A DNA stretch of 64,000 nucleotides from an uncultured Actinomycetes bacterium (GCA_963733255.1 CAVTCH010000009.1:29694-93693); one strand, 5' to 3'. Numbered from the stretch's first letter, positions 7,183 through 33,901 are shown. The notes: generated by a model from the sequence alone, not told the origin. Program-made: numbers and translations.

Positions 7183-7286
7183 CCCAGAGGGCCGTAGCCC
7201 GCTGGGGATGATCACGCAGTATTCAATACCCAGCCTGCCCAGGCGTCAAGCTCTCAGACGGCCAGGTCCGACTCGCTGTCGCTGCG

Positions 7287-10151: not shown

Positions 10152-10188
10152 CTCGGCGCTCGACTGTGTCGCCGCCGCTCAAGCCGGC

Positions 10189-10268
10189 GCGACGTCGTTG
10201 CGCACCTGGTCACGGTGCCGCTCAGACCGTCGCGATGTTGTTGCGCACCCGGTCACGCCGCCGACCGT
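10189..10268. repeat. two tandem ~40-bp direct repeats (core GTTGCGCACCYGGTCACG) in the dehydrogenase upstream region
   Basis: Seen directly: gcgacgtcgttgcgcacctggtcacggtgccgctcagaccgtc / gcgatgttgttgcgcacccggtcacgccgccgaccgtc. Confidence 0.5.
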
Positions 10269-13437: not shown

Positions 13438-13529
13438 GCTCGCGCCGGCCGGCGCCGGGCGCTCCGACCGGTCGGCTCGAGAGTTCCGACCGGTGGGTCG
13501 CCAGGTTCCGACCGGCCGGCAGGGCTGCG

Positions 13530-15440: not shown

Positions 15441-17099
15441 ATGTTCCACGACGAAGGCGACGCCCAGCACCGGCGCGACAGCGAGCAGTTGGCCAAGTTC
15501 GGCTACAGCCAGGAGCTGCGCCGCTCGCTCGGCTTCTTTTCGACGTTCGCCATCGCCTTCAGCTTCATCTCGGCGACCAACGGCTTCTATGCGCTCTTCT
15601 ACTACGGCCTCGACGTCGGCGGGCCGGCCGGCCTCATCTGGCAATGGCCGATCATAGTCTTCGGCCAGTTCATGGTCGCCCTCGTGTTCGCCGAGGCGGC
15701 CTCGCACTACCCGCTGGCCGGCGGCGTCTACCAGTGGGCCAAGCGCTTCATGGGCGGCACCTACGGCTGGTGGACGGCCTGGATGTTCGCCGTGGCGCTG
15801 GTCGTGACGGTGGCCGCGGTCGCCTTCGGCGTGACGCCGATCGTCTGCTCGCTCATGGGCTGGCAGACGACGCACGGTACCCTGCTGTGGATCGCCGTCT
15901 GCTTCACCGCGGGGCCGATGCTGCTCAACATCTACAGCGTCAGGGTGACGGCCTTCTTCAACAACATCGGAACGGTGACCGAGATGATCGGCCTCGTGGT
16001 GATCGGCACCGCCCTCTACATCGCGGTGATCACCGGCCACGGTCAGCACCAGGGACTGAGTGTGCTGTTCAACACGACGCCGGGCGCTGCGAAGGGCGCC
16101 ATCTTCGGGTACGGCAGTGTCTTCCTTGCCGCGATGCTCACCGGCGCCTGGGTGATGTACGGCTTCGACGCTGCGGGCGGCCTGGCCGAAGAGACGGTCA
16201 ACCCCACGCGTGAGGTGCCCCGCGCCATGCTGTTCGCCGTGGGCATAACGGCGGCCATCTCGGCCTTCTGGCTGGTGGCCATGGTGCTGGCGATACCGAA
16301 CGTCCCAAAGACGCAGGCACAGAGCACCGGCGCCATCGCCTACATCTTCCACGCGCACTTCCCGAACTGGGTGACCAACGCCTTCCTCATCTCGGTGTGC
16401 GTCGCCATCTTCGTGTGCTGCCTGGCCATCCAGGCGGCGACGACACGGCTGCTGTACGCCTACGGCCGCGACAAGATGATCCCTGGCCACAAGTTCTTCG
16501 GCTACGTGCATCCCAGGACCAAGACCCCGCTGACCTCGGCGATCTTCGTGGCCGTAGCGGCCATCGTCGTGCTGCTCTACGTCACCGTCGGCGGCGCCGA
16601 CCCGTTCGTCCAGATCGCCCGCGTCACCGCCTGGGCCACGGCCGGCACCTACATCGCCTACCAGATGGTGGTCTTCGGCGGCCTCGTCAAGCGCTCCAAG
16701 GGCTGGCCCACGGAGAGGGCCTACTTCAACCTGGGCAGGTGGGGCTGGCCGGTCAACATCATCGCCTTCGTCTACGGCGTCTTCATGATCGTGAACCTGG
16801 CCTGGCCGCGGCAATCCACGACCTGGCTCGACACCTACATCGTGATGCTTTCGCTCGGCGTGGTGGTCGTCGTCGGTGCGATCGTGTATGCGATCCAGCG
16901 CGCGCGGGGCGTCGATCTGAGCGCGACGATCCACGAGATCGACTTCTCGCCGGTCGACGCTCAGGCGGCCCTCGCCATGGCCGCCGGCGAAGCCGGCAAG
17001 ACGATCCCCGGCGACGGGCTCTCGGGCGAGACCGGCATGTCCGAGATGTCGGGGCCGCAGCGTCCCGAAGGACCTGAATCAGGAGGTTTTACAGACTAG
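15441..17099 (+). CDS. APC-superfamily amino acid/amine permease (12 TM)
   Basis: Characteristic APC N-terminal helices (FSFISATNGFY..., GGVYQWAKR); alternative TTG start at 15408 after GAGAGGGGGG. Confidence 0.8.
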   Translation: MFHDEGDAQHRRDSEQLAKFGYSQELRRSLGFFSTFAIAFSFISATNGFYALFYYGLDVGGPAGLIWQWPIIVFGQFMVALVFAEAASHYPLAGGVYQWAKRFMGGTYGWWTAWMFAVALVVTVAAVAFGVTPIVCSLMGWQTTHGTLLWIAVCFTAGPMLLNIYSVRVTAFFNNIGTVTEMIGLVVIGTALYIAVITGHGQHQGLSVLFNTTPGAAKGAIFGYGSVFLAAMLTGAWVMYGFDAAGGLAEETVNPTREVPRAMLFAVGITAAISAFWLVAMVLAIPNVPKTQAQSTGAIAYIFHAHFPNWVTNAFLISVCVAIFVCCLAIQAATTRLLYAYGRDKMIPGHKFFGYVHPRTKTPLTSAIFVAVAAIVVLLYVTVGGADPFVQIARVTAWATAGTYIAYQMVVFGGLVKRSKGWPTERAYFNLGRWGWPVNIIAFVYGVFMIVNLAWPRQSTTWLDTYIVMLSLGVVVVVGAIVYAIQRARGVDLSATIHEIDFSPVDAQAALAMAAGEAGKTIPGDGLSGETGMSEMSGPQRPEGPESGGFTD

Positions 17100-17195
17100 G
17101 CGCGCCACGAAGTCACGCTCGCCTGAGCGGCGACGACGAAGTCGCTCACCGGGGGCACTAGGCGCGTCACGATCGGAACAGAAGCGTCACAGGCG
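17094..17195. repeat. one and a half copies of a ~58-bp palindromic repeat beginning at the permease stop codon (gacTAGGCGCGCC...)
   Basis: Sequence identity with the tandem units at 17587-17762. Confidence 0.5.
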
Positions 17196-17422: not shown

Positions 17423-17590
17423 ATGCAGAAGTACGTGTGCACGCTTTGCGACTGGGTCTACGATCCCGAGATCGGCGATCCCGACAACGGCGTTGCGCCG
17501 GGCACGGCGTTCGACGACCTTCCCGACGACTGGGTCTGCCCCGACTGTGGCGCCGGCGTCGACATGTTCGAGCCCCTCGACGAAGACTAG
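17423..17590 (+). CDS. rubredoxin
   Basis: [10 protein letters not shown]...CPDCG two CxxC knuckles; AAAGGAG SD 7 nt before the ATG. Confidence 0.85.
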
Positions 17591-17762
17591 GCGCGCCGCG
17601 TAGTCACGCATGCCTGAGCGGCGATGACGAAGTCATTCGCCGGCACTAGGCGCGCCGCGTAGTCACGCATGCCTGAGCGGCGATGACGAAGTCATTCGCC
17701 GGCACTAGGCGCGCAGCGAAGCCACGCTCGCCCGAGCGGCGACGACGAAGTCGCTCGGCGGC
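17587..17762. repeat. three tandem copies of a ~58-bp palindromic repeat; first copy overlaps the rubredoxin stop codon TAG
   Basis: Units 17587-17644 and 17645-17702 are identical; the third is diverged; each contains a bulged hairpin (GGCGATGAC gaa GTCATTCGCC). Confidence 0.7.
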
Positions 17763-18794: not shown

Positions 18795-18894
18795 CGAACC
18801 TCCTCGTCTCTGCCCGTCTGCCCGGGCACGCCCCGGGCGGGTCCTTGAAGCTTCCCCGAACGGGCGAAAACGTAGAGTCCGGCGCGCCCGGAAC

Positions 18895-19566
18895 CTACTC
18901 GACCTTGGTCAGCTTGGCGCCCTGCGTGACGGTCACCGCGCCGCCCGACTTGGGCGTGCCCTGAACGGCGATCGCCAGCGTGCCGTGGTCGACCGTGAAG
19001 ACGACGCTGTAGGTCGTGAACACCAGGGCCAGCGCGTTCTTGGCGGCCGCGACGACCGCCGCCTGCCTGGCGTCGTGACCGACGTAGTCGTAGCTGGATT
19101 CGAGGTGACCCTTCGTGAGGGTGGCGCTGAACGGACCGACGGTGCGCCCGCCGGCGACCTGTGTGACCGTGTACAGCGCGCCGCTCCTGGCGATGGTCAC
19201 CGTGATGGCGGTGGCGCCGGTCGTGCCGGTCGAGGCGATCGTCGTGCCCTGCCAGGTGCCGAGGAACTGCGTGCCGGGCGCCGGCCTGAGAACGAAGAAC
19301 CAGACCCCGGCGACGGCCACGATGGCGACGATGGCGAGCAGCACGAGCCAGGGCAGCTTCGAGCCTTTCGATGTCTTGCCGGCGCGCAGCGGCTGGATGG
19401 TGGGAGCGGTCGTGCCGTAGGCGGTCGGCGCGTCGTAGTAGGCCTTGTCGTGAACCGGCTCCTGGTAGGCGTCCGCAGCCGGCTGTTGGCTGAGGGGAGA
19501 TCCGCAGGCGCCGCAGGTCCAGGCGCCGTCGCGTGCCTCAGTGCCGCAGCTCGGGCAGGTTGCCAC
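18895..19566 (-). CDS. zinc-ribbon, single-TM protein with extracytoplasmic domain (paralog of 21070-21603)
   Basis: CPSCG...CGACG zinc ribbon, TM helix, and GTWQG motif; GTG start after GAGGAGG. Confidence 0.5.
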   Translation of the reverse strand: MATCPSCGTEARDGAWTCGACGSPLSQQPAADAYQEPVHDKAYYDAPTAYGTTAPTIQPLRAGKTSKGSKLPWLVLLAIVAIVAVAGVWFFVLRPAPGTQFLGTWQGTTIASTGTTGATAITVTIARSGALYTVTQVAGGRTVGPFSATLTKGHLESSYDYVGHDARQAAVVAAAKNALALVFTTYSVVFTVDHGTLAIAVQGTPKSGGAVTVTQGAKLTKVE

Positions 19567-22714: not shown

Positions 22715-24031
22715 CTAGCTCGCCCAGGCGGCCGGAAAAAGGACGATCTCGCCGTTCTGAGCCTTGACGGCACGCTCGGCGATGTCGGCACGCGTCTGCA
22801 CACCGGCGAACGAGATGCGCGCAAGCGCGCCGTAGGCGCGCTCGCGCGCCGCGGCGAAGTCGTTGCCCAGCGCGCTCACCGCCAGCACGCGGCCGCCGGA
22901 GGTCACGATGTCGTGGCCGTGCACCGCCGTGGCGGCGTGGTAGACCGTGACGTCGGGCATGCCGGCCGCTTCGGAGAGGCCCTCGATCACATCGCCCTTC
23001 GAGCTCGAGGCCGGGTAGCCGGCCGACGCGGCGACGATCGTCACGCAGTCTTCGGGCTTCCAGCGAAGCTGCACCGTGTCGAGCTCGCCGTCGGCGGTCG
23101 CCAGGCAGGCTTCGAGCAGGTCGCTGTCGAGGCGCGGCAGGATGGCCTGGGTCTCGGGGTCGCCGAACCGGCAGTTGAACTCGAGCAGCTTGATGCCGTG
23201 GTCGGTCACGATGAGGCCGCCGTAAAGCACGCCGCGGTACTCGATGCCGCGCCGCCGCAGGGCGTCGAGCACAGGCTGGTAGAGGTCCTCGACCACGGTC
23301 TCGGCGACGTCGGCGGCAAAACCGGGCACAGGGCAGTAGCTGCCCATGCCGCCGGTGTTGGGACCCTGGTCGCCGGCGAAGATGCGCTTGTAGTCTTGCG
23401 CCGGCGCCATGGGCACGATCCGGGTGCCGTCGCAGAGCGCCAGCAGTGAGACTTCGGAACCGCTCAGGAACTCCTCGATCAGCACCGTGCCCCCGGCCTC
23501 GCCGAAGGCGTGGTCGGCAAGGCAGAGGCGAACGGCCGCCCGCGCTTCGGCGGCATCCTGGCAGATGATCACGCCCTTGCCGGCGGCCAGGCCGTCGGCC
23601 TTCACGACGACCGGCCAGGTCTCCTGGGTGTCGACGTCGCGCAGGGCGGCGACCAGCTCGGTGTGGCGGCGGTAGTGGCCCGTGGCGACGTGGGCCTCGT
23701 TCATGATCTCCTTGGCGAAGGCCTTGCTGCCCTCGAGCCGGGCGCCGTCGGCGCGCGGGCCGAACACCCGCAGGCCGTGCTCGGCGAACAGGTCGGCGAC
23801 GCCGGCCACGAGCGGCACCTCGGGCCCCACGACGGTCAGCTCGATCTTCTCGCGGCGCGCGAAGGCCAGCAGGCCTGGCAGGTCGTCGGCCGCGATGTCG
23901 ACCGTGTCGGCCTCTTGCGCGATGCCGGCGTTGCCGGGTGCGCAGAACACCTGGGTCGCTTGCGGGGAGGCGCAGAAGGCATGGACGAGGGCGTGCTCGC
24001 GACCGCCGCCGCCGATCACCAGAACTCGCAT
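22715..24031 (-). CDS. purD: phosphoribosylamine--glycine ligase
   Basis: MRVLVIGGGGREHAL N-terminus and ATP-grasp core; GAGGAGGA SD. Confidence 0.9.
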   Translation of the reverse strand: MRVLVIGGGGREHALVHAFCASPQATQVFCAPGNAGIAQEADTVDIAADDLPGLLAFARREKIELTVVGPEVPLVAGVADLFAEHGLRVFGPRADGARLEGSKAFAKEIMNEAHVATGHYRRHTELVAALRDVDTQETWPVVVKADGLAAGKGVIICQDAAEARAAVRLCLADHAFGEAGGTVLIEEFLSGSEVSLLALCDGTRIVPMAPAQDYKRIFAGDQGPNTGGMGSYCPVPGFAADVAETVVEDLYQPVLDALRRRGIEYRGVLYGGLIVTDHGIKLLEFNCRFGDPETQAILPRLDSDLLEACLATADGELDTVQLRWKPEDCVTIVAASAGYPASSSKGDVIEGLSEAAGMPDVTVYHAATAVHGHDIVTSGGRVLAVSALGNDFAAARERAYGALARISFAGVQTRADIAERAVKAQNGEIVLFPAAWAS

Positions 24032-24126
24032 GGGTCCTCCTCGTGGCCTGGGGGTTGTCGTGGCCGTCGCACCGCGGGTCGTGCGAGGGGCAGGACAAGC
24101 ATACAACGCGGGGCGCTCCGGGCGGC

Positions 24127-24300
24127 GGTGACGCTCAGGGCGGGGCGAGGATCTCCAGGTCGGGGCTGTCTCGGTCGGCTTCGCGGCCTACTGCCCAAGC
24201 GCACCACCTCGCAGGCCGACCTCACGACCCTCACCCCGCCCTTCGCTCCGGCCAGCGCAGGCCGACCTTACGACCCTCACCCCGCCCTTCGCTCGGGCCG
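24127..24300. repeat. composite repeat set A: E1 (GGTGACGCTCAGGGCGGGGYGAGGRTCTCCAGGTCGGGGCTGTCTCGG) followed by two tandem E2 units (CGCAGGCCGACCTYACGACCCTCACCCCGCCCTTCGCTC)
   Basis: Copies recur at 26150-26353 and, in reverse complement, at 28733-28790; E2 core is the reverse complement of the E1 core (17-nt potential stem). Confidence 0.6.
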
Positions 24301-24538
24301 CCGCGGACTACCGCAGGCCGCGGCACGGCCGTTCGGGGATTCTGACTGGCTTCCCGACTGTAGCCTCGCCCAAAACGCCGTGCGCGGGCTGCAGCGGGGT
24401 GTTGCGAGTCGTGCAGCGGGCGCCTGGAGCCGGTCGTCGGTTGCCTCGGCGAGTGCTCTCCGAGGCACCGGCACGAAGGTTACGGCCAAGCGGGGTAGAC
24501 TTCCGCGGTCTGTCCGATTCGCCGAGGAGGCACGAGAC

Positions 24539-25978
24539 GTGGGCAACGACGTTCGCTACATCGTTCTCTCGGACCTGCATCTCGGGGCCGAGAACAGCAT
24601 CCTCACAAGCCTGCAGGCAGGCACGACGCTGGCCGACTCACAGCACACAAGCCCGGTCCTCATTTCACTGGTCGAGTGCCTGCGCCACATCGTCGCGGCC
24701 AACGAAGGCGGCGAGCTGCCGACCATGATCGTCGCCGGCGACCTGGTCGAGCTGGCCTTGGCCTCACCTGCCCTCAGCCTGCCGGTCGTGGCCCAGTTCG
24801 CGAAGGCACTGGCCGGTGGGGAGCCGGTTGTGCGCGACGAGGCCATCTTCGTTCCCGGCAACCACGACCACCATCTCTGGGAGATGAGCCGGGAGCGCGC
24901 TGCGGCGGAGTTCCTGCAGGCCGGCAAACCTCGCGAGCAGGAGCCCGCATCGTGGCATACCTCGTCGATGTTCCTGTCACAGTCACCCCACTATGGAGCA
25001 CCCCTGCTCGAAGACGCCGTGCATTACCTGCGTGACACCGAGCGCGCCCAGGTGCGCGTCGTCTATCCCGACCTCGCCCTCACCTCGGCCGACGGGCAGC
25101 GCGCCGTGTTTGTCACCCACGGCCATTACATGGAGCCGGTCGGCACGCTGTTCTCGGCGATGGCGCGCCTCGCCGACCCATCGTCGCCGCCGCTCGACAA
25201 CGTCGATCTGATCGAGCGCGAGAACTGGGCCTGGGTCGACTTCTTCTGGGGTTCCATGGGTCGTTCGACGCGGACCGGAGCTCTGATCGAGAAGCTCTAC
25301 GACTCGATGCAGGACCCGCGCGCCGTCCAGGCCATGCTGGGCGGTCTTGCTTTGAGCGTTACACAGCATCAGAGCCCCCTGCTTGCCCGCATCGAAGGCT
25401 GGGGCATCCGCCGCGTTGTCGGCCGTATCGTGACCAACAAGCTGCACGAGCGCGAGCGCAACAACGCCGACGAGGTCCTGGGCGGGGGCTCGCGCCGCGG
25501 CCTGGCGCAGTATCTTGCAGCGATGCGCAACACGTTCGAGCGGCAATGGGAGAATCCCCTGCCGAGTGACGTCACCATGGTAGTGGGTCATACCCACAAG
25601 CCCTTCAGCGAGTGGTGGGAAGAGCCGGCCTGGCCCGCGGGCGGTGTGCGCGTCTTCAACACCGGCGGCTGGGTGGTCGATCACGTGACGCCGCAGCCGC
25701 TCATGGGCGCTGCCGTGGTACTCGTGAGCGACGATCTCGACGTCGTCTCGCTGCGGATCTACCAGCAGGTGAGCAGACCCTCATCGTGGGAGGTCGTCGT
25801 CGAAACGGTGAAGCCCACGGCCGGCGGCGAACACTTCGCCGACCATATCAGGGGCCTCATCAAGCCCGCAGCGGAGCCCTGGTCTACCTTCGTGGCCGCC
25901 GTCGACGCACTCGTGAGAGAGCGCCGCGAGGACATGCGCAAGATCCTCGAGGGCGAGCTGGAGTTGCTGCGGGAGTAG
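24539..25978 (+). CDS. calcineurin-like metallophosphoesterase with ~130-aa unique C-terminal extension
   Basis: MPP motifs IVLSDLHLG, GDLVE, GNHDHH, VTHGH, VVGHTHKP; GTG start after GAGGAGG. Confidence 0.7.
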   Translation: MGNDVRYIVLSDLHLGAENSILTSLQAGTTLADSQHTSPVLISLVECLRHIVAANEGGELPTMIVAGDLVELALASPALSLPVVAQFAKALAGGEPVVRDEAIFVPGNHDHHLWEMSRERAAAEFLQAGKPREQEPASWHTSSMFLSQSPHYGAPLLEDAVHYLRDTERAQVRVVYPDLALTSADGQRAVFVTHGHYMEPVGTLFSAMARLADPSSPPLDNVDLIERENWAWVDFFWGSMGRSTRTGALIEKLYDSMQDPRAVQAMLGGLALSVTQHQSPLLARIEGWGIRRVVGRIVTNKLHERERNNADEVLGGGSRRGLAQYLAAMRNTFERQWENPLPSDVTMVVGHTHKPFSEWWEEPAWPAGGVRVFNTGGWVVDHVTPQPLMGAAVVLVSDDLDVVSLRIYQQVSRPSSWEVVVETVKPTAGGEHFADHIRGLIKPAAEPWSTFVAAVDALVRERREDMRKILEGELELLRE

Positions 25979-26149
25979 GAGCGGTGGGAGTCGCCAGGCG
26001 CGTTGCAGCCTAGCTCAGGCGGCAGCAGGAGCCTGCCTCGGCGTGCAGCTCCATCCAAAGCGTGAGGATGCCAACCAAGACTCGGGCTTTACCGGCCGGT
26101 GGCGTGAGCGGCGAGCGGCTGCCCCACTCGAGGCGTGCGCTGCCTTCGG

Positions 26150-26353
26150 AGCGAGAGGCGGGGTGGGGGTCTCCAGGTCGCGGCTGTCTCGGGGTGACGC
26201 TCAGGGCGGGGTGAGGGTCTCCAGGTCGGGGCTGTCTCGGTCAGCCGCGCGTCCTACTATCCGAGCGCGCCACCTCGCAGGCCGACCTTACGACCCTCAC
26301 CCCGCCCTTCGCTCCGGGCCAGCGCGGGGCCACCGCAGGCGACCTTACGCGGC
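26150..26353. repeat. composite repeat set B (partial E1, full E1, E2, partial E2)
   Basis: Near-identical to set A at 24127-24300. Confidence 0.6.
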
Positions 26354-26403
26354 CCTCGCTCCTGCGCGGCCGGCGGGCGGCCTTGTCGCCGCCTGCGCGC
26401 TGC

Positions 26404-27759
26404 TCAGGGCGCCGGGGTTGGGAACTGCACCGTGATCGCGTTGACGTGCCGGTCGGTCGTGGACCGCAGCCATCCGACGACGATCGGGCCCGACGGGCTG
26501 AGGGCGCTGGCCTCGGCGAATTCGTCGTATAGCGGCGTCTCGTGGAGCATCGGCTCCCCGCGCGATCCGCTCGCGGAGTAGGGCACCACGACCAGCCGAT
26601 CCACGTCGGGGCCAAAGCTCGTGCCGCAGACGAAGATGCTGCCGTCGGCCGCGCACTCGAGCCCGTTCGCCTGGGCGATGGCGCCTTTGCCGGGCGACCA
26701 TGCGGCGCGAAAGACGGGGGAGCCGTGAGTGGTGAACTTGGCGACCAGGAAGGTCGTGGGCGTGTCGCCTCCCAGGCCGCCCGCACAGATCACGTTGCCG
26801 CCGGCGTCGAGTCTTATCCGCGTGAATCCACCGGCGCGACCTTGCGGGCTCACGCGCCGGCCCCAAAGCAGGCGGCCACTCGGGCTGTAGGCGCGCACCA
26901 GGGCGGTGTGGTGGGTCGCCCCGGCTCTCGCGCACAGGTAGACGGCCCCGGACCGAGCGGCGACCAGGTCGCTGCCCGCGACGGTGGCAGACAACGCGGA
27001 CCATCTCTTCGTTCCACTCGGGGTGTACGAGACGAACAGCCCCAGGTCACGGACGACCCCGCAGGCGTACACGTCGTCGTTGCGCCCGACCGCCACCGTC
27101 CAGAGCCCGTCCAATCGACCCGGGCCTCCGGCGATCCTGCGCTGCCAGAGCACCTGTCCGGTGGGGGCGAGCTTCACGAGGATCGCGTCCGAGCCGGTGC
27201 GGCGCCCGATCGAGCCGGCGACGTAGGCGGCGCCACGTGAGTCGATGGCGACGTCGTCTGCCCCGCTGCCCGTTCTTACGTGGCTCATCACTTTGGTCGC
27301 CCAGAGCCGTGTGCCGTCGGTCCGGTACCGTACGATCAGGATGCCGGCTCCTCGCGTGCCGGTCTGACCCCAGGCCAGCAGGTCGCCGTTGGGCATCGCC
27401 GTCACGCCGCCGAACTGTCCGTTGGCGACGACGCCGGACGGCGATCTCTCCCAGACGAGAGAACCGTCGGCCGCGTACTTGACGAGCCAGGGTACGGCCG
27501 GGCTGTCGCCGAACTTGTGAGCGTACGCGGCGCCGGCGACGTACGAGGAGCCCGCGGCGTCCACGGCGACTCCCAGCGCGAGTCGGTTCTGAGTCCCCGC
27601 GGGTCCGTCGTAGACGCCCGCCCACAGCGGATCGGCGGCCAAAGCCGCCGCCGGAGTCGCCGTCGTCACCCCCGAGGCCACGGCCGTAGCCGCGACTGCT
27701 GCCGCCAGTGACGCGGTGAACACGAAGACCAGCACTCCGGACCAGACGTGCTTTCTCAT
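26404..27759 (-). CDS. secreted beta-propeller repeat protein (SBBP-like)
   Basis: Signal peptide MRKHVWSGVLVFVFTASLAAAVA and repeated ~45-aa blades (AGS.YV.G, GS..WA); GGGGGAGGGG SD. Confidence 0.6.
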   Translation of the reverse strand: MRKHVWSGVLVFVFTASLAAAVAATAVASGVTTATPAAALAADPLWAGVYDGPAGTQNRLALGVAVDAAGSSYVAGAAYAHKFGDSPAVPWLVKYAADGSLVWERSPSGVVANGQFGGVTAMPNGDLLAWGQTGTRGAGILIVRYRTDGTRLWATKVMSHVRTGSGADDVAIDSRGAAYVAGSIGRRTGSDAILVKLAPTGQVLWQRRIAGGPGRLDGLWTVAVGRNDDVYACGVVRDLGLFVSYTPSGTKRWSALSATVAGSDLVAARSGAVYLCARAGATHHTALVRAYSPSGRLLWGRRVSPQGRAGGFTRIRLDAGGNVICAGGLGGDTPTTFLVAKFTTHGSPVFRAAWSPGKGAIAQANGLECAADGSIFVCGTSFGPDVDRLVVVPYSASGSRGEPMLHETPLYDEFAEASALSPSGPIVVGWLRSTTDRHVNAITVQFPTPAP

Positions 27760-28020
27760 GACGTGACCCCTCCCCCTTGGCCGGCCGCGGCGACTCACTG
27801 CGAGACTCGCTGCGACTATACCAGTGACACCTCCTTCGACCGCGGTGACCCGGCGTTCTTTCACGCCTGATGGTCGGAGTCCCTCCGCCGGCACGAGCAA
27901 GGACCAGCGAACGCGACTAGGGGTCTCACGTGAAGGCCACAACCAAGAACTACCGCCTCGGGACCGTCGGCGGGAGCAAGCACAGTGCGCCGTCGGGCCG
28001 ACCAGGCCAAGGAGCAGCCG

Positions 28021-28716
28021 ATGACAGGCGAGCAAGGCAAACGCGATGACGATGTCTCTGTGTTTCCGGTGGAGCGCGAGCTGGTGACTCCACGAGCCGC
28101 GGGGGTGGCCGGCATCGTCTTTGCGGGGCTGTTCGTGGGCTCGATCCTCGCTCTGCGCACCGCGACGGGACGCTCGCTCAGCGTCCAGACGGTGATCCGC
28201 AACATTTCCGGCCACCACTCCACGCTGGCCGTGGTGGGCCTGTACCTGACGTTCTTCGCAGGGGTGGCCTTCCTGTGGTTCATGGCCGTGCTGCGCGATC
28301 GCATCGGACGCCGCGAGGACAAGTTCTTCGCGACCGTGTTCATGGGCAGCGGACTACTCTTCGTCGGCCTCTTTCTGGCGGGGGCCGCCGCCACCGGTGG
28401 CCTCGCCGCCGGATTCCGGTTTGGCACAGACGCCTCGCTCGACGCGGCCGTGGTGGGCTATGCGCGCTCGATCGGCTACGCGTTTCTGCTGGTGTTCGCC
28501 ACCAAGGCGGCGGGCGTGTTCACGATCGTCACCTCGACGATGCTGCTCCGTCTGGCACACTGGCCGCGCTGGACCGCGTTCTCGGGCTACGCCGCCGCGC
28601 TCGTGCTGGTGTTCAGCGTCACCTTCTTCGAGCCGGTCATTCTGGTGTTCCCGGCTTGGGTCACGGCCATGAGCGTCTACGTCCTGCTCACAGGTGGAAG
28701 CAGGGAAGCCGCGTGA
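28021..28716 (+). CDS. hypothetical polytopic membrane protein (5-6 TM)
   Basis: Hydrophobic helices throughout; AAGGAG SD before ATG 28021. Confidence 0.5.
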   Translation: MTGEQGKRDDDVSVFPVERELVTPRAAGVAGIVFAGLFVGSILALRTATGRSLSVQTVIRNISGHHSTLAVVGLYLTFFAGVAFLWFMAVLRDRIGRREDKFFATVFMGSGLLFVGLFLAGAAATGGLAAGFRFGTDASLDAAVVGYARSIGYAFLLVFATKAAGVFTIVTSTMLLRLAHWPRWTAFSGYAAALVLVFSVTFFEPVILVFPAWVTAMSVYVLLTGGSREAA

Positions 28717-28732
28717 GTCTCCGCCGGCCTGC

Positions 28733-28790
28733 GCCGCCCTGAGCGTCACCCGAGACAGCCCCGACCTGGAGACTCTCACCCTGGCCGGAG
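28733..28790. repeat. reverse-complement partial E1 repeat (junction of tandem E1 units)
   Basis: Reverse complement matches ...GGTCTCCAGGTCGGGGCTGTCTCGGGTGACGCTCAGGGCGG. Confidence 0.5.
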
Positions 28791-28799
28791 CGTCACTCG

Positions 28800-30470
28800 C
28801 TACGCTGTGAATCCCTCCGCTCGGTACACCTCGTCGCCGCCGAAGACGGTGAGCAGGACGCTGGCCTCGCCGATCTGCTCGGGCGGCGCCGTGAGGATGT
28901 TGGTGTCGAGCACGATCAGGTCGGCCGACTTGCCGGGCGCGAGCGAGCCGGTCTCGCTGTCCAGACGGTGGGCGCGGGCGCCGGCGATCGTGAAGCTGTC
29001 GATCATCTGCTCGACCGAGACCCGCTCCTCGGGCCAGAGGACGTCGCCGGGGGCGGCTTCGCCGGCGGCCCAGCGCATGACCCCGACCTGGATGCCGACC
29101 AGCGGGTCGGGCGGCACCGTCACGGGGAAGTCGCTGGCAGAAGCGACGGGTACGCCGGCCGCGAAGAAGCTCGCCATGGGGTACTCGCGCTCGGCGCGCT
29201 CGAGGCCAAGGTAGGGCACCTGGAGGTCGTAGAAGTAGTCGTCGCGCAGGAACCAGTAGGGGTTGAGCACGGCGGTCACGCCGAGGGCGGCGAAGCGCTC
29301 TATGTCGCCGGGGCGCGTGAGCTGCACGTGGGTGATCGCCGGGCGGTCGCCGCCCAGGCCGGCGGCGCGGGCGGCGGCGATGGCGTCGAGCGCGGCCGCT
29401 GTGCCGGCGTCGCCGATGGCGTGGTAGTGGAGCTCGAAGCCGGCGGCGGACGCCGCGACCGACGCCGCCTCGAGCGCGCCCTGCGGCCATTCCGGAAAGC
29501 CGCGGTCGTCGGGCGTGTCGGCGTAGGGTTCGTCCAGGTAGGCGGTGTGGCCCTCGATGACGCCGTCGGCGAAGAACTTGACGGTGTCGGCGGCAAACAG
29601 CGCGCCGGTGTGGCGACGGCGCTCGGTCGCCGCGGCCCGCAGCTGCTCGTCGACGGGCAGGTCGGAGCGCAGCCAGAAGCCGGCCCTGAAGCGCGCCGTG
29701 AGCTCGCCGTCGCGCTGCAGCCGTTCGAAGGCGTCGAAGCCCGGCTCGCCGGCCACGAGCATGGGGTCGAAGACCGTCGTCAGGCCCAGCGGGCCGGCGA
29801 CCTTGCGCTGATAGAAGCGGATGCCCTCGGCGAACTGGTCGGCCGTGAACGCCGTGACGGCTCCCCGCACGAGCTGCTGGGCGCCCTCGCGCAACGTGCC
29901 GCTGGGGGCGCGGGTCGCGGGGTCGCGCTCGATCACGCCGTTGGCCGGGTCGGGGGTGTCGGGCCCGATGCCGGAGAGCCGCAGTGCCGCGCTGTTGACC
30001 CACAGCGAGTGGCCGTCCTCGGACACGAGAAGGGCCGGCCGGTCGGCCACGACGGCGTCGAGGGCGGCCGCCGTGGGTCCGTGGCCGGGCACGACGACGT
30101 TGCTCCAGCCCGCGCCGAAGACGACGGGCAGCTCGGGGTGGGAGGCGCTGAAGTCGCGCACGGCCGCGAGGTACTGCTCGCTCGAGGTGAGCCCCTTGAG
30201 GCGCACGCCGAAGAGGTCGCCGGTGGTCTCGCTGGCGTGGGCGTGGCTGTCGATGAACCCGGGCAGCACGAGGCGTCCCTCGAGGTCGACGACCCGGGTG
30301 GCGCTGCCGCCGAGCCGCCGCACCACGCCGGCCGGGCCCACGGCGGCGATGCGGCCGCCGGTGACGGCCAGCGCCTCCGCGACGCTGCGGTCGCCGTCGG
30401 CGGTGTAGATCACGCCGTTCACATAGACGGTGTCGACCGCGCGCGGGCCGTCCTGCTCAGTCGCGCTCAT
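28800..30470 (-). CDS. amidohydrolase-family metal-dependent hydrolase (amidohydro_3/YtcJ-like)
   Basis: PGFIDSHAH metal-binding motif near the N-terminus, HYHAIGD and ASDFP motifs. Confidence 0.75.
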   Translation of the reverse strand: MSATEQDGPRAVDTVYVNGVIYTADGDRSVAEALAVTGGRIAAVGPAGVVRRLGGSATRVVDLEGRLVLPGFIDSHAHASETTGDLFGVRLKGLTSSEQYLAAVRDFSASHPELPVVFGAGWSNVVVPGHGPTAAALDAVVADRPALLVSEDGHSLWVNSAALRLSGIGPDTPDPANGVIERDPATRAPSGTLREGAQQLVRGAVTAFTADQFAEGIRFYQRKVAGPLGLTTVFDPMLVAGEPGFDAFERLQRDGELTARFRAGFWLRSDLPVDEQLRAAATERRRHTGALFAADTVKFFADGVIEGHTAYLDEPYADTPDDRGFPEWPQGALEAASVAASAAGFELHYHAIGDAGTAAALDAIAAARAAGLGGDRPAITHVQLTRPGDIERFAALGVTAVLNPYWFLRDDYFYDLQVPYLGLERAEREYPMASFFAAGVPVASASDFPVTVPPDPLVGIQVGVMRWAAGEAAPGDVLWPEERVSVEQMIDSFTIAGARAHRLDSETGSLAPGKSADLIVLDTNILTAPPEQIGEASVLLTVFGGDEVYRAEGFTA

Positions 30471-32410
30471 GCCTCCTCCGCCGTCAGCCGCCGGCGGCGC
30501 GTCGTCCACACGATGAGGCCGGCCGCGACGACGATCACGACCACGGCGACGACGATCCACACGCCCTTGGCGCCGCCGCTGCTCGAGCCGCTGCTCGTGT
30601 TCGGCATCAGGTTGACGTACGAATCGACGGTGGCGGTCGTCACAAAGGCCGGGCCGCGGCCGTGGAACATCGGGGTCCAGCCGGTCCAGCGAGAGGTGTT
30701 GTAGGCCTCGAGGTACTGCGGGTAGACGAGCACGAGCTGCGGGGACTGCTGGTAGAAGATCTGCTGCATCTGCCAGATGAGGTGCTGACGGGTGGTCGGG
30801 TCGAGCGCGGCCGACTGCTCGACATTCAGCTTGTCGAAGGCGGCGTTCGACCAGGCGGGCTCGTTGGTGCCGCCGATCTGCGGCGTCGTGAATGAGGTCA
30901 GTGTCTCGCCGGGGTCGCCGTAGCCGGCCCAGTCGCTCAGGGCCATGTCGAAGTCGGGGGCGAACGTCGTGCCCTTGTAGTTGAACATGCGGGCCAGGAA
31001 GGCGCCGTCGTCCATCACCTGCAGGGTGATCTTGAGGCCGAGCTGCTGGAACCAGCCGGCGATCAGCTTGGCTTCGACCTGGCCCTGCTGAAAGTCGGTC
31101 GTGGTCGCCAGGCGCAGGGTGATCGGCTTGCCCTTGTAGAGACGCAGGCCGTTGGCGCCGCGCGTGTAGCCGGCCGCGTCCAGCATCTGGTTGGCCTTGG
31201 CAATGTCGAAGGTGTAGGTCTCGCCGGCCGGTGGCTGCCAGTGGTAGTCGGGGTCCGACCAGGTGTCGGGCGGCATGATGGTGGTGGCCGGCGCCGCGAG
31301 GCCGTCGTAGGCGACCTTGGCCAGTGTGGCGCGGTTGATCGCGTAGTTCAGGGCGGTGCGAAAGCTCGCGTCGCGCAGCACCGGGTTACCGGTCGAGCTC
31401 GACAGCGTCGAGCAGTTCAGGTCGAGGTAGTCCCAGTTGAAGAAGTTGTAGGCGATCGTGTGGATGCTGCTCATCGCCTTGAGCTGTGAGAACTGGGCCA
31501 CGGGAATGCCCCAGGCTCCGTCGAGCACGCCCGACTTCAGGTCCTGCACCATCGTGTCGGGATTCTGGTACATCTCGAAGTAGATCTGGTCGACGGTCGG
31601 CTTCTTGCCCCAGTAGTAGGGGTTGCGCTTCATCTCGACGTAGGCGCCCTTCCTGAAGGCCACGGTGTAGAAGGGGCCGCTGCCGACGATCGGCGGTGAG
31701 TTCAGGAAGGTCGTGGCTGCCGCCTGCGGTGAGACGTGCTCCCAGACGTGCTTGGGCAGGATCGGCAGGAAGATGTTCTCCATGTTGGCCTTGGGCTGCG
31801 AGCAGTCGATCTCGACGGTGGTCGGGTCGATCTCCTTGGCGCCGGTGATGCCCGTGGTGGTGAGGGCCAGGTTGGCCATGTGGTTCTTGACGATGTAGTT
31901 GTAGGTGAAGGCCACGTCGGCGGCGGTGAGCGGCTGGCCGTCGGACCACTTCACGCCGGGCCGCAGGTGGATCGTCCAGACCTTGCCGTCGGCCGAGATG
32001 CCGCCGTTGGCCTTGGTCGGGTACTGCGCCGCCAGGCTGAGCGTCGGCCGCATCGACTGGCCGTCGAAGCCGAACAGGAAGTTGTAGTTGATCGTCCAGA
32101 TCTCGTAGGTCGTGGTGGCCCAGCCGACGAACGGGTTGAGGTTGTCGGGCTCAGACGTCCAGCCGATCTTGAGGACGACGTTGTTCGACGCGGGCGAGGG
32201 TGACGACGATGCGGCGAGCGCCGCCGCGAGGCCCCAGATCAGGCCGCAGACGAGCACCACCGCGACGATCAGCGCAAGACGGCGGGTGACCCGCCTCGAG
32301 CCCCGGGACCCGCCCGCGCCCCGAGACCGGCTGGAGGCTCGAGACTCGCTGGGGCCCCCGGACCCGCTGGAGCCTCGCGACGTGCCCGAACTACCAGAGC
32401 TGCGCTTCAT
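30467..32410 (-). CDS. ABC transporter substrate-binding protein, family 5 (peptide/nickel type), with N-terminal signal/anchor and predicted C-terminal TM helix
   Basis: SBP_bac_5 N-terminal signature (KIGWTSEPDNLNPFVGWATTTYEIW); C-terminal hydrophobic stretch VWIVVAVVVIVVAAGLIVW. Confidence 0.75.
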   Translation of the reverse strand: MKRSSGSSGTSRGSSGSGGPSESRASSRSRGAGGSRGSRRVTRRLALIVAVVLVCGLIWGLAAALAASSSPSPASNNVVLKIGWTSEPDNLNPFVGWATTTYEIWTINYNFLFGFDGQSMRPTLSLAAQYPTKANGGISADGKVWTIHLRPGVKWSDGQPLTAADVAFTYNYIVKNHMANLALTTTGITGAKEIDPTTVEIDCSQPKANMENIFLPILPKHVWEHVSPQAAATTFLNSPPIVGSGPFYTVAFRKGAYVEMKRNPYYWGKKPTVDQIYFEMYQNPDTMVQDLKSGVLDGAWGIPVAQFSQLKAMSSIHTIAYNFFNWDYLDLNCSTLSSSTGNPVLRDASFRTALNYAINRATLAKVAYDGLAAPATTIMPPDTWSDPDYHWQPPAGETYTFDIAKANQMLDAAGYTRGANGLRLYKGKPITLRLATTTDFQQGQVEAKLIAGWFQQLGLKITLQVMDDGAFLARMFNYKGTTFAPDFDMALSDWAGYGDPGETLTSFTTPQIGGTNEPAWSNAAFDKLNVEQSAALDPTTRQHLIWQMQQIFYQQSPQLVLVYPQYLEAYNTSRWTGWTPMFHGRGPAFVTTATVDSYVNLMPNTSSGSSSGGAKGVWIVVAVVVIVVAAGLIVWTTRRRRLTAEEA

Positions 32411-33819
32411 GTCGTCCTCCTTGGCCGGTCAGGCCGGTCGGCTGAGGTCGCATACCAGGGATGAGCACGTTCGAAGGCGGTGGCGGCGGCGAAGACGCTG
32501 ACGTCGTCGAACGTCCGCCCCACGATCTGCAGGCCGATGGGCACGCCGCTCGCGGCGCGGGCCGCCGGCACCACGAGGACGGGGCAGCGGCTGCACATGT
32601 TGAACGGGAACGTGAGGGCGCGGTCGAAGACCACGTCGATGTCGTAGTCGCCGGCGGCCGGCAGGGCCGGTTCGGTGAAGGTCGGGCAGATCAGCAGGTC
32701 GTGGTCTTCGAACACGGCCGCCAGGTGACCGTAGGTCTCGCCTTCGACGGCGAGCGACTCGAAGTAGCCCATCGTCTCGCGGCGCACGGCGTCTTCGGCG
32801 AACTCGATCGCGTAGGCCGTGAGCAGCTCGCGATGCTGGGCCAGGATCTCGCCGATCCAGGCGCCGAAGATGATCGACAGGTGGGCGCGGGCCGCTTCGC
32901 GCATGGCGTCGAGCGACCAGCCCAGCCCGACCTCGTCGACGGTGGCGCCCAGCCCGCGGAACGTGTCGGCGGCGGCGCGCGCGGCGGCCGCGACCTCGTC
33001 GCTGACGTCGAAGCCGCCGAGGTCGACGCTGCAGGCGATCCTCATGCCGGCCACCGGCGGCAGCTCCGCCGGGATGGTGAGCTTGGGCCGCAGCGAGGCG
33101 ATGTCTTCGGGGTGCGGCCCGGCCATGACGTTCTCGAGCACGCGGCAGTCGTCGACCGAGCGCGCCAGCGGCCCCTCGTGACAGTAGTGATCGAGGTTGA
33201 AGGGCGGAAGCTGTGGCACCCGGCCGTAGGGCGGCTTGAAACCGACCACCCCGCAAAACGAGGCGGGAATGCGGATGGACCCGCCGATGTCGGAGCCGGT
33301 GGCGAGGGTCGCCATGCCGGCCGCCAGCGCGGCGCCCGAGCCGCCCGACGAGCCGCCCGGGCTGAAGTCGAGGTTCCAGGGGTTGCGCGTCACGCCCCAT
33401 AGCCGCGACTCGGTGATCGCCGCGCAGCAGAACTCGGGGGTCGTGGTGCGCACGTGGATGATGCCGCCGGCGTCGATCACCCGCTGCACGCTGCCGGCCG
33501 TGATCTCGGCGATCTCGTCCTTGAAGACGAGCGAGCCGGCGGTGCAGGGCTGGCCGGCCACTTCGACCTCGTCCTTGACGGCGACGGGGATGCCTTCGAG
33601 CGGCCGCGGCTCGCCGCCCTTGCCGGCGAAGCGCGCCTCGGCCCGCCGGGCCGCCTGCAAGGCGTCGTCGAAGAAGCGGATGGGAACGGCGTTGACCTCG
33701 GGGTCGACCGCCTCGATGCGGGCGATCGTCGCCTCCATGAGCTCGACTGGCGAGAGTTCACGGTTAACAAACAGCCGGCGTGCCTCGCCGGCTGTCAGGT
33801 AGTGCAGCTCGTCGGCCAC
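32407..33819 (-). CDS. amidase (amidase-signature family)
   Basis: GGSSGGSGAALAAGMATLATGSDIGGSIRIPA AS motif; GTG start after AAGGGGGGG. Confidence 0.8.
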   Translation of the reverse strand: MADELHYLTAGEARRLFVNRELSPVELMEATIARIEAVDPEVNAVPIRFFDDALQAARRAEARFAGKGGEPRPLEGIPVAVKDEVEVAGQPCTAGSLVFKDEIAEITAGSVQRVIDAGGIIHVRTTTPEFCCAAITESRLWGVTRNPWNLDFSPGGSSGGSGAALAAGMATLATGSDIGGSIRIPASFCGVVGFKPPYGRVPQLPPFNLDHYCHEGPLARSVDDCRVLENVMAGPHPEDIASLRPKLTIPAELPPVAGMRIACSVDLGGFDVSDEVAAAARAAADTFRGLGATVDEVGLGWSLDAMREAARAHLSIIFGAWIGEILAQHRELLTAYAIEFAEDAVRRETMGYFESLAVEGETYGHLAAVFEDHDLLICPTFTEPALPAAGDYDIDVVFDRALTFPFNMCSRCPVLVVPAARAASGVPIGLQIVGRTFDDVSVFAAATAFERAHPWYATSADRPDRPRRTT

Positions 33820-33901
33820 CTGGGCCCCCCTTGTCGACGCGGACGAGTGCTGTCTCTGCGGACAGCGTAAACCTTCGCCCGGGGCGAAGGTCAAGGGGCG
33901 G

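Follow-up and report, generated by a model that had tools for sequence, protein, structure and literature searches.

The window, i.e., the whole stretch of 64,000 nt (64 kb) from an uncultured Actinomycetes bacterium that was analysed, contains between purD and an amidohydrolase gene a variable segment in which accessory genes lie among copies of a composite inverted repeat. The genes that flank and occupy this segment are the following:

22715–24031, minus strand: purD, encoding phosphoribosylamine-glycine ligase (Pfam GARS_N/A/C, E 1e-27 to 1e-71)
24539–25978, plus strand: metallophosphoesterase gene, 479 aa (Pfam Metallophos, 25.5 bits against a cutoff of 21.5)
26404–27759, minus strand: gene of a secreted propeller-like protein, 451 aa (signal-peptide-like N-terminus in the translation)
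28021–28716, plus strand: membrane protein gene, 231 aa (no Pfam family)
28800–30560, minus strand: amidohydrolase gene (Pfam Amidohydro_3, E 5e-89)
30467–32410, minus strand: SBP_bac_5 solute-binding protein gene (Pfam SBP_bac_5)
32407–33894, minus strand: amidase gene (Pfam Amidase)

The purD gene is the first gene of a conserved purD-purE-...-purB cluster and the fixed anchor of the locus, and the synteny downstream of it is conserved in the related loci L015 to L022. The amidohydrolase gene, which follows the amidase and SBP_bac_5 genes, all on the minus strand in the window, is the second fixed flank. The metallophosphoesterase gene is accessory cargo, missing at the purD locus of L001 and L015, and its homologues (80–88% identity) are found in other contexts, the homology of L012 being limited to 24490–26019. 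The propeller-like gene is also cargo, present in L015 (where positions 1–958 correspond to 27351–26394 of the window) and missing in L001. Its best Pfam hint was the DUF5122 beta-propeller (E 0.088) and a PDB sequence search gave no match, the beta-propeller label of the 451-aa protein being weakly supported. The membrane protein gene is also found at the purD locus of L001, and homologues 79–84% identical occur in unrelated contexts. No recombinase, integrase or transposase was found within ~13 kb of the repeat units, in agreement with the first-pass annotation as to transposases. A tRNA/tmRNA scan detected no tRNA or tmRNA in the window, and with no integrase nearby a tRNA-linked integrative island was discarded. 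A second small repeat family, of 59 nt, is present in the same genomes at intergenic sites that differ between the window and L015; in the window it includes the upstream stop codon.

The repeat unit is composed of two arms, E1 (~48 nt) and E2 (~46 nt), joined by a spacer. Both arms are represented at three sites (sets A, B and C), all of them between purD and the amidohydrolase gene:

24110–24126, plus strand: partial extra E1 head GGGGCGCTCCGGGCGGC, read from the sequence
24127–24174, plus strand: set A, E1 arm, with the core AGGGCGGGGCGAGGATC (two mismatches to the consensus) and then the conserved tail TCTCCAGGTCGGGGCTGTCTCGG
24175–24209, plus strand: set A, spacer of 35 nt, A-type, starting with TCGGCT and carrying the loop motif CCTACTG (unit alignment)
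24210–24255 and 24256–24301, plus strand: set A, two tandem E2 arms with a 46-nt period
24302–24343, plus strand: degenerate E2-like tail that includes CGCAGGCCG; the homology with L015 stops at 24343
26147–26192, plus strand: set B, outer degenerate E1' with the head GGAGCGAG, read from the sequence
26193–26321, plus strand: set B, complete E1-spacer-E2 unit (nhmmer E 8e-37), made of E1 (26193–26240), a B-type spacer (26241–26275; TCAGC...) and E2 (26276–26321)
26322–26364 (start and end approximate), plus strand: set B, degenerate outer E2' CGCGGGGCCACCGCAGGCGACCTTACGCGGCCCTCGCTCC
28750–28796, minus strand: set C, reverse-complemented E1 arm whose end lies 3 nt from the stop codon of the amidohydrolase gene
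28723–28749, minus strand: set C, remnant in which a truncated E1 head (28733–28749) is fused to the first 9–10 nt of E2 (28723–28732)

All the elements that the first-pass annotation had placed together, in the same order and with tandem duplication, at sets A and B were found. The reverse-complement E1 that it had reported at 28733–28790 is also present, with slightly shifted limits, the arm itself occupying 28750–28796 and a truncated head 28733–28749. The E2 tandem of set A was detected by TRF (period 46, 2.0 copies, 95% matches), and the tandem copy number varies from one to three for E1 and from one to 2.7 for E2. The partial head at 24110–24126, which has counterparts in L001 and L015, appears to be a slippage-type duplicate of the E1 start. 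At set B, the E1' head is complementary to the E2' tail, adding an outer palindrome layer, and the set C remnant looks like a deletion scar that extends into the 3' end of the membrane gene; in L001 the corresponding position is occupied by a full unit. Between units A and B (125 nt each) the identity is 91%, and the 47-nt E1 of set C is 91% complementary to that of set B. Since the copies are only 90–94% identical, they must have diverged along with the surrounding genes. Orientation is mixed in the window (A and B on the plus strand, C on the minus strand), and the propeller-like and membrane genes follow each other without an intervening unit. Coding arrays were ruled out by the E2 period of 46 nt, which is not a multiple of 3, and by stop codons on the reverse strand, and CRISPR arrays by tandem copies without unique spacers.

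The 17-nt core was matched six times with up to three mismatches, against 0.64 expected, and none of 100 shuffles reached six; the 23-nt E1 tail was matched four times against 0.00 expected (0 of 100 shuffles). Scans with the core, the tail and the profile gave no further copies anywhere in the 64-kb window, the purD-purE-purB cluster included. The cores of E1 and E2 are exact reverse complements, as the first-pass annotation had stated, provided that the consensus E1 core is taken. The 17-bp stem that it had proposed was also retained, but not its ~70-nt loop: the unit is predicted to form 17 bp, a 3-nt internal loop, a further 7 bp (AGGTCGG/CCGACCT) and some weaker pairs, leaving ~52 nt unpaired. 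In the set B unit the 17-bp stem is perfect and is accompanied by the 7-bp stem. Secondary-structure prediction returned this long hairpin with z-scores of −5 to −6 for unit B on both strands (−5.5 as DNA, −6.2 as RNA) and −5.0 for unit A on the minus strand. Single arms fold poorly (z −1.32 for E1 alone, +0.69 for E2 alone). The spacer varies among units and yet keeps a small hairpin of its own. The inverted repeat begins ~10 nt inside the unit, its outer ends, GGTGACGCTC... and ...TTCGCTCNGGCC, not being complementary.

Two compensatory stem changes in L019 maintain the pairing. The one-sided stem changes comprise four G-U and four A-C pairs, with no strand bias, and thus give no positive evidence for an RNA role. 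The arm sequences themselves, and not only their pairing, are conserved between distant lineages, which could instead mean that they are recognized by a protein. On neither strand is the hairpin followed by a U-tract or T-run, none of the three arrays contains the attC core sites GTTRRRY/RYYYAAC, and a search for sigma-70-type promoters found none. Rfam 15 gave no match at the gathering score in the whole window, and at E ≤ 5 the region gave only chance miRNA-like matches (E ≥ 0.1).

We have compared the window with 22 related loci, and those that carry the unit include Thermoleophilia. In the closest relatives the flanking genes share ~91–92% nucleotide identity with the window. Each of the three closest genomes has its own set of genes between the units. 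The window carries the metallophosphoesterase, propeller-like and membrane genes; L001 carries the membrane gene and an FG-GAP gene and lacks the metallophosphoesterase and propeller-like genes; L015, which also lacks the metallophosphoesterase gene, has a segment of 553 nt containing an 81-aa ORF and, after it, the propeller-like gene. Moreover, unit B is inverted in L015 with respect to the window while the orientation of the adjacent gene is unchanged. The enclosed genes are therefore variably present, as the first-pass annotation had anticipated, and five of the six alignment breakpoints fall inside a repeat array or at most 45 nt from one (rough chance probability 5e-4; by BLAST, L015 1696–4989 matches window 24343–21070). 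The remaining breakpoint, at 27955, is away from any unit.

Set A had been taken as one boundary of an inserted module, and this did not hold. In L019, L020 and L021, Thermoleophilia relatives whose PurD is 84% identical, an E1-spacer-E2x2 element lies upstream of purD in the same orientation, and the genes that it immediately follows, for an amidase and an SBP_bac_5 protein, match the flank genes of the window. In these relatives no other gene stands between purD and the upstream operon (amidase and solute-binding protein, the amidohydrolase being included or not). The same position beside a different upstream neighbour indicates that set A is an ancestral element linked to purD, and not the boundary of an inserted module. 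Orthologues of its E1 are found in L001, L015, L017 (half only) and L019–L021, and the core stands ~93–105 nt from the purD ATG in the window, L001, L017 and L019, the intervening sequence being unalignable. In L017 the amidohydrolase gene directly adjoins purD with an E1-like half only (nhmmer E 3e-4) at the boundary; in L016 the two genes also adjoin, with no unit. The neighbouring genes differ too at these two boundaries, and neither is a clean empty site. No such element was found at purD in L016 (92% aa identity) or L022 (78%). L019 has its own 73-nt E2 duplication, showing that the arms slip recurrently. Units or halves lie 0–82 nt past the stop codons of minus-strand genes at window C, window B, L001 C, L015 B', L017 and L019, set A being placed between divergent genes in the window, L001 and L015.

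A profile built from seven units was run on 301.5 kb (the window and the 22 related loci), and the significant matches adjoin purD only, with none outside the purD locus. The genome collections were scanned with a strict pattern of 24 specified bases (core plus second stem), which catches one of ~8 arms in the matched locus, and yielded only the same locus in one MAG. The metagenome scan used the 20-nt E1 tail, one base too long for the L015 variant, and gave three chance 20-nt matches only. Strict-pattern scans of plasmids, phages and, twice, viral contigs produced chance matches or none. A dispersed repeat family, for which the first-pass annotation had proposed to look, was not recovered in the sequences searched. 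The window covers 64 kb of a source contig of at least 403 kb, a weak test for low copy numbers, and this coverage and the strictness of the scans may be compatible with a low-density dispersed family. Homologues of the membrane protein (L005–L011) and of the metallophosphoesterase (L012–L014) in other contexts have no repeats beside them; the possibility that the repeats travel with the cargo genes was thus ruled out, and it is the locus, not its cargo, to which the repeats belong.

The reading that we favor, at about even chances, is that a hairpin at an operon boundary, which probably serves as a terminator or insulator, underwent local duplication in a hotspot of insertion and deletion. 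The E1-spacer-E2 unit would be a lineage-specific, GC-rich palindromic intergenic element whose original single-copy site was the boundary between two co-directional operons, flanked by the 3' end of the amidase/solute-binding(/amidohydrolase) operon and by the promoter region of the purD operon. RNA made from either strand of the unit would fold into a very stable hairpin able to end or insulate transcripts, either as a terminator or by stabilising 3' ends. This boundary would have become an insertion/deletion hotspot in the sublineage of the window, with local copying of whole units, in one orientation or the other, and tandem amplification of half-units, probably by slippage or template switching at the hairpin and by recombination between copies. 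The result would be units at the 3' ends of resident genes, separating accessory genes that vary among close relatives.

SPRITEs, which are terminator-like interspersed repeats, carry a strong stem near the 3' end of a coding sequence and lie between genes that converge or run in the same direction (PMC3049150), and the units likewise place a strong stem close to coding-sequence 3' ends; in contrast with SPRITEs and intrinsic terminators, they have no U-rich tract and their stem-loop is far longer (~125 nt). In Actinobacteria it is disputed whether termination can proceed without a U-tract, and the mycobacterial RNA polymerase requires one for intrinsic termination (PMC3993855), so that a pure intrinsic-terminator role is doubtful. 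Set A, being located between divergent genes in the window, L001 and L015, needs no terminator there. Neither slippage nor recombination between the cores predicts in any simple way the clean inverted whole-unit copies (L001 C and L015 B'). Recombination between the E1/E2 cores of two units predicts chimeric units with identical outer flanks, and since L001 C and L015 B' are clean whole units, it was ruled out as the sole mechanism of inversion. A simple deletion between the direct units A and B was also ruled out as the origin of L015, which has a different 553-nt insert and an inverted unit B.

The MIRUs of mycobacteria are direct tandem intergenic repeats found at about 40 dispersed loci. 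They resemble the present units in their actinobacterial host, tandem units of 46–48 nt, strain-variable copy number and location at operon junctions, but, unlike E1/E2, they are not built as two complementary palindrome arms. The 59-nt family of the window recalls them as well, since it includes the upstream stop codon.

Alternatively, the unit might be a non-autonomous mobile element, similar to MITEs, REPINs or BOX elements, mobilised in trans by a transposase encoded elsewhere, which we consider rather unlikely. Sets B and C, L001 C and L015 B' would then be independent insertions or local hops in either orientation, and unit pairs may move the genes between them. The REPINs or REP doublets associated with RAYTs, e.g., those of Pseudomonas fluorescens SBW25, are intergenic and often lie downstream of genes (PMC3337134; PMC3116915; PMC3733652). 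The unit has a REPIN-like architecture (PMC3337134), with inverted arms that form a long hairpin (~90–130 nt) and a variable spacer that keeps a small hairpin. Clean whole-unit copies in both orientations, including the unit B flipped in L015 beside an unflipped gene, also favor mobility, and the different sites of the 59-nt family in the window and L015 indicate that small repeats do spread in this lineage. However, the single arms are not short palindromes (z −1.3 and +0.7), no RAYT (Y1 transposase) or other transposase was seen within ~13 kb, the arm ends show no unpaired GTAG or CGTC tag (GTAG occurs in the loop only, on the reverse strand), and here half-units are amplified in tandem. The copies sit at one locus, with none elsewhere in 301 kb, against hundreds dispersed for REPINs, 64 kb of the source genome being covered. 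In contrast with MITEs, the unit has no terminal inverted repeats at its very ends, since the outer 10 nt of both ends are not mutual inverted repeats, and no target-site duplication at L001 C, L015 B' or window C. The strict genome and metagenome scans likewise argue against mobility, as does the purD-proximal copy, which is orthologous in position across deep relatives.

The BOX elements of Streptococcus pneumoniae, with the structure boxA-boxB(n)-boxC, have ~45-nt tandem internal modules, an end-paired stem-loop and a strain-variable copy number (PMC3049150). The modular tandem half-units recall the boxB arrays, and the likeness is one of architecture only (modular composite repeat, tandem modules of ~45 nt, paired ends): the sequences are presumably unrelated, the BOX family is streptococcal and dispersed through the pneumococcal genome whereas the units are at one locus, and both arms amplify here instead of the central module. 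Transposon-type mobility of the unit is unproven. Of the repeat-delimited module suggested by the first-pass annotation, the delimitation stands as a description; no target-site duplication, recombinase or transposase was found, so that any specific recombination or mobile role of the repeats would be an inference, and there is no evidence that the repeats are the ends of a self-mobile element.

It is less probable still that the arms are cis-regulatory sites of the purD operon, as an operator, an upstream element or a leader RNA, the extra copies being by-products of rearrangement. Position (~93–105 nt to the ATG) and orientation are kept in four lineages across unalignable flanking intergenic sequence, and the core is conserved beyond its pairing. 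Nevertheless, the element is missing in L016 and L022 (purD 92% and 78% identical in aa) and is only half present in L017, no other core exists in the window, purD-purE-purB cluster included, no Rfam riboswitch or leader matched, and copies B and C lie at the 3' ends of genes unrelated to purines.

We give slightly less weight to the idea that uncultured Thermoleophilia possess a gene-exchange mechanism not yet described, for which the ~130-nt palindromic units would serve as working sites. The units might resemble REPINs and be moved by a transposase that has escaped recognition, or they might be recombination sites that act as folded DNA and are used by a recombinase whose gene lies elsewhere. 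If this were true, single accessory genes (secreted propeller proteins, small membrane proteins, a phosphoesterase) would be captured, inverted and swapped at the 5' limit of the purD operon, and unit B, inverted in place between the window and L015, would record such activity.

Integron attC sites are imperfect palindromes of 57–141 nt that follow single accessory genes, and integrons are rare in Actinomycetota. Cassette-type gene capture, with the units as attC- or Xer-like recombination sites for a recombinase encoded elsewhere, appears very improbable. As in attC arrays and CALINs, structured imperfect palindromes (~130 nt) stand at the 3' ends of single genes, the gene content between them varies among close relatives, and A and B are direct repeats around the metallophosphoesterase gene, as after the integration of a circle. 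In contrast, the units have no R'/R'' core sites (GTTRRRY/RYYYAAC) and are not co-oriented (B plus, C minus), no tyrosine or serine recombinase or integrase lies within ~13 kb, the breakpoint at 27955 lies away from the units, one A x B event is not enough to interconvert the contents of L015 and the window, and cargo homologues elsewhere have no adjoining unit.

Lastly, an assembly artefact or chance similarity in GC-rich DNA is hardly credible: the window and most relatives do come from metagenome assemblies (JGI for L015) and inverted 125-nt repeats can confuse assemblers, but shuffles gave 0 of 100 for both motifs, the same elements recur in independent ENA, NCBI and JGI assemblies (L001, L015, L019, L020 and L021), and the copies are not identical to each other.

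The locus is a modest example of small intergenic repeats that mark a place of gene gain and loss, and this case alone opens no major question. To our knowledge, work on small palindromic intergenic repeats such as REP, BOX, ERIC and MIRU has been confined almost entirely to Proteobacteria, Firmicutes and mycobacteria, and the present case comes from an uncultured soil lineage of Thermoleophilia in which the history of the repeat is partly readable: a single operon-boundary hairpin is kept beside purD in fairly deep relatives and has multiplied locally in one sublineage, at the very place where the gene content changes. It is a small, concrete case in which to ask how new repeat families arise, and whether hairpins of this kind provoke local insertion/deletion hotspots or are taken up as insulators once foreign genes have arrived beside an essential operon.

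Upstream of purD, a conserved hairpin-forming element marks an operon boundary and has been multiplied locally where gene content turns over. Each unit comprises an E1 arm (~48 nt), a spacer and an E2 arm (~46 nt). Direct reading of 23900-29100, together with a repeat finder, confirmed the composite E1/E2 repeats that the first-pass annotation had described at three arrays, here called sets A, B and C, which lie among the following genes:

22715-24031, minus strand: purD
24110-24126, plus strand: set A, partial E1 head (read from the sequence)
24127-24174, plus strand: set A, E1 (sequence reading and repeat finder)
Between E1 (24127-24174) and the first E2, plus strand: set A, 35-nt spacer
24210-24255 and 24256-24301, plus strand: set A, two tandem E2 arms (TRF: period 46, 2.0 copies, 95% matches)
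24539-25978, plus strand: metallophosphoesterase
26147-26192, plus strand: set B, degenerate outer arm E1' (sequence reading)
26193-26240, plus strand: set B, E1, followed by the spacer (sequence reading)
26276-26321, plus strand: set B, E2 (sequence reading and repeat finder)
Extending to ~26364, plus strand: set B, degenerate outer arm E2' (sequence reading)
26404-27759, minus strand: secreted propeller-like protein
28021-28716, plus strand: membrane protein without a Pfam family
28733-28749, minus strand: set C, truncated second E1 head fused to the first E2 bases
28750-28796, minus strand: set C, E1 (sequence reading and repeat finder)
28800-30560, minus strand: amidohydrolase
30467-32410, minus strand: SBP_bac_5 solute-binding protein
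32407-33894, minus strand: amidase

For the propeller-like protein, the only domain signal is a weak one to DUF5122 (E 0.088), and a search of PDB sequences matched nothing. Neither a tRNA nor an Rfam family turned up in the window. The names carried by homologues assign the lineage to Thermoleophilia, Actinomycetota.

The 125-nt units of sets A and B are 91% identical, and the E2 core, when reverse-complemented, is indeed identical to the consensus E1 core. The proposed 17-bp stem was recovered, but the fold is longer than had been claimed: the predicted structure runs through 17 bp, a 3-nt internal loop and 7 bp (AGGTCGG/CCGACCT) to weaker pairs, which enclose a small hairpin in the spacer. 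Units fold with z-scores of -5 to -6, and E1 alone or E2 alone folds no better than shuffled sequences. Nearly all of the 39 pairs of the consensus fold are invariant; compensatory changes occur in two, both contributed by the deeper relative L019, and one-sided stem changes show no strand preference (4 G-U versus 4 A-C). In set B, the outer E1' head GGAGCGAG is complementary to the E2' tail CTCGCTCC, while head and tail of the inner unit are not complementary, so the palindrome has grown by addition of a symmetric outer layer. The repeat scan of the whole window also returned two other palindromes: at 6034-6099, one of 31 bp that is perfect and has a 4-nt loop, and at 60398-60470, one of 35 nt whose arms are 86% complementary across a 3-nt loop.

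An E1-spacer-E2 element also lies upstream of purD in three deeper relatives whose purD is 84% identical (L019, the NCBI Thermoleophilia MAG GCA_035517975.1; L020, from JGI; L021, from ENA), where E2 carries its own 73-nt tandem duplication. It has the orientation of set A, its core stands ~93 nt from the purD ATG (~105 nt in the window, 99 and 102 nt in the relatives L001 and L017), and it directly follows the 3' end of amidase and SBP_bac_5 genes of the same Pfam families as those flanking the window locus. The stretch from element to ATG cannot be aligned between lineages. Since orientation, distance and neighbours all agree, set A is, judged by these comparisons, the ancestral element at the boundary of the amidase/SBP_bac_5 and purD operons. 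In L017 (purD 91% identical in amino acids) an amidohydrolase gene adjoins purD across a 157-nt spacer that holds an E1-like half only (nhmmer E 3e-4). In L016 (92%) another amidohydrolase paralogue takes this place, and the junction carries a nearly perfect GC hairpin (2540-2600, GCGCGGGGGGCGGGGGCATCAATGCCACCCGCCCCCCGCGC) unrelated to E1/E2; a strong hairpin thus recurs at the amidohydrolase/purD junction despite its different sequence. In L022 (78%) purA lies 81 nt upstream. In seven lineages compared, the gene upstream of purD is a different one each time, and the downstream cluster from purE to purB is conserved.

The content between units differs in each of the three multi-unit genomes. 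The window order is purD, A(+), metallophosphoesterase, B(+), propeller-like gene, membrane gene, C(-) and amidohydrolase. In L001 (~92% nucleotide identity) it is purD, A(+) with 2.9 copies of E1 and 2.7 of E2, membrane gene, FG-GAP_2 gene, a full unit C(-) and amidohydrolase. In L015 (purD 98% identical in amino acids), A(+) is followed by a 553-nt stretch containing an 81-aa ORF, then by a complete inverted unit (B') and the propeller-like gene, and the metallophosphoesterase gene is absent from the locus. The L001 FG-GAP_2 repeat-protein gene (3744-5406), which stands there in place of the window cargo, consists of two overlapping ORFs (3744-5033 and 4936-5406); the split reflects either an error in sequencing or a frameshift, in which case the gene is a pseudogene. 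The earlier notion of a repeat-delimited accessory module holds as a description, and a mobile or recombination-site role for the repeats is unproven. Set C of the window has the appearance of a deletion scar: it consists of E1, a cut-off E1 head and the beginning of E2, and it extends into the membrane gene at its 3' end; at this position L001 has its full unit and an additional gene.

Two spacer types were distinguished in the unit alignment, the A-type (TCGGCT...) in set A of the window and of L015 and the B-type (TCAGC...) in window B(+), L015 B'(-) and L001 C(-). Because these last three share the B-type spacer, the second unit copy arose once, before the window, L001 and L015 split, and its positions and orientations now differ. 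Unit copies diverge by 6-10% between genomes, similar to the flanking genes, and a private change common to both L015 units (TCTACAGG) suggests gene conversion within that genome. When the window is aligned with L001 or L015, five of the six breakpoints fall inside an array or within 45 nt of one, for which the rough chance probability of 5e-4 is to be read with the breakpoints being non-independent and the repeats themselves ending alignments.

Homologues of the intervening genes occur in unrelated contexts with no units nearby, both for the membrane protein (79-84% identity, L005-L011) and for the metallophosphoesterase (80-88%, L012-L014); at L012, homology to the window is limited to 24490-26019. 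The repeats belong to the purD boundary and not to this cargo. The 231-aa membrane protein represents a family without a Pfam domain that has hundreds of soil-metagenome homologues, with L005-L011 and L013 (6965-7663) among the loci compared; several homologues, in differing contexts, are near SHOCT, DUF6325 or PLDc_N genes. These homologies all stop ~22 nt short of the window stop codon, so its C-terminal tail is variable. In two of the three relatives, the metallophosphoesterase gene lies directly 3' of an SfLAP-family (PF11139) membrane gene (L012, 9371-9949; L013, 9160-9951), and in L014 the SfLAP gene (13282-13944) lies ~1.8 kb downstream instead. The window gene has lost this partner, which fits relocation of the metallophosphoesterase gene alone.

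A second, unrelated repeat family of 59 nt (ACTAGGCGCGCC...) is present at 17095-17153, 17586-17762 (three tandem copies) and 10160-10210 (reverse), bracketing a rubredoxin gene (17424-17589), and the first bases of every copy form the stop codon of the gene before it. In L015 two copies follow a zinc-ribbon gene stop (7237-7349), a site whose window equivalent (~18880-18897) has none; the intergenic positions of this family thus differ between close relatives, in the manner of MIRUs.

For E1/E2, we infer with moderate confidence a hairpin that acts at transcript ends, whether as terminator, as insulator or by stabilising the 3' end, combined with instability of the boundary, where palindromy and recombination between copies would favour slippage, duplication, deletion and inversion. 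Units or halves lie 0-82 nt 3' of minus-strand stop codons at six places, and sets B and C sit between convergent genes. A classical terminator is disfavoured, because no U-tract was found at the units, mycobacterial RNA polymerase needs one (PMC3993855) and the genes on either side of set A are now divergent.

A REPIN- or MITE-like mobile element is suggested by the architecture, by clean units in both orientations, by the in-place inversion of unit B and by the shifting sites of the 59-nt family, yet it is unlikely, given that position A is orthologous across relatives, the arms are non-palindromic, and neither target-site duplications nor a recombinase or transposase (within ~13 kb on either side) were found. 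Dispersal, too, was not borne out in the sequence searched, where copies occur at the purD locus only: the 64-kb window has no further copies, and all significant matches of a profile HMM built from seven units, run with every filter disabled on 301.5 kb (the window and 22 related-genome loci), adjoin purD. Scans of genome, metagenome, viral, plasmid and phage collections returned chance matches, or the same locus in one MAG only; the genome and metagenome patterns were too strict and coverage of the source genome was the 64-kb window, part of a contig of at least 403 kb, so a family numbering a few tens per genome could still exist. A cis-regulatory site of purD seems less probable still. Cassette-type recombination sites are a very improbable reading, as attC core sites are absent and unit orientations are mixed. 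The 17-nt core (up to 3 mismatches) occurs six times against 0.64 expected and the 23-nt E1 tail four times against 0.00, counts reached by no shuffle, and we give practically no credit to the repeats being an artefact.

In form the element is close to REPINs (PMC3337134) and to the modular BOX elements (PMC3049150), and in placement to terminator-like repeats such as SPRITE; the 46-48-nt units, arranged in tandem in an actinobacterial host, are reminiscent of MIRUs. The element differs from REPINs in arm palindromes and in copy number (as judged on 64 kb of the source genome and related loci), from MITEs in having no terminal inverted repeats with target-site duplication, from attC sites in core sites and co-orientation, and from intrinsic terminators in the U-tract. 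Among small palindromic intergenic repeats, a broad and known class, it would thus be a new, lineage-specific member, unusual mainly for its confinement to one locus in the sequence searched and its traceable single-copy ancestral state.
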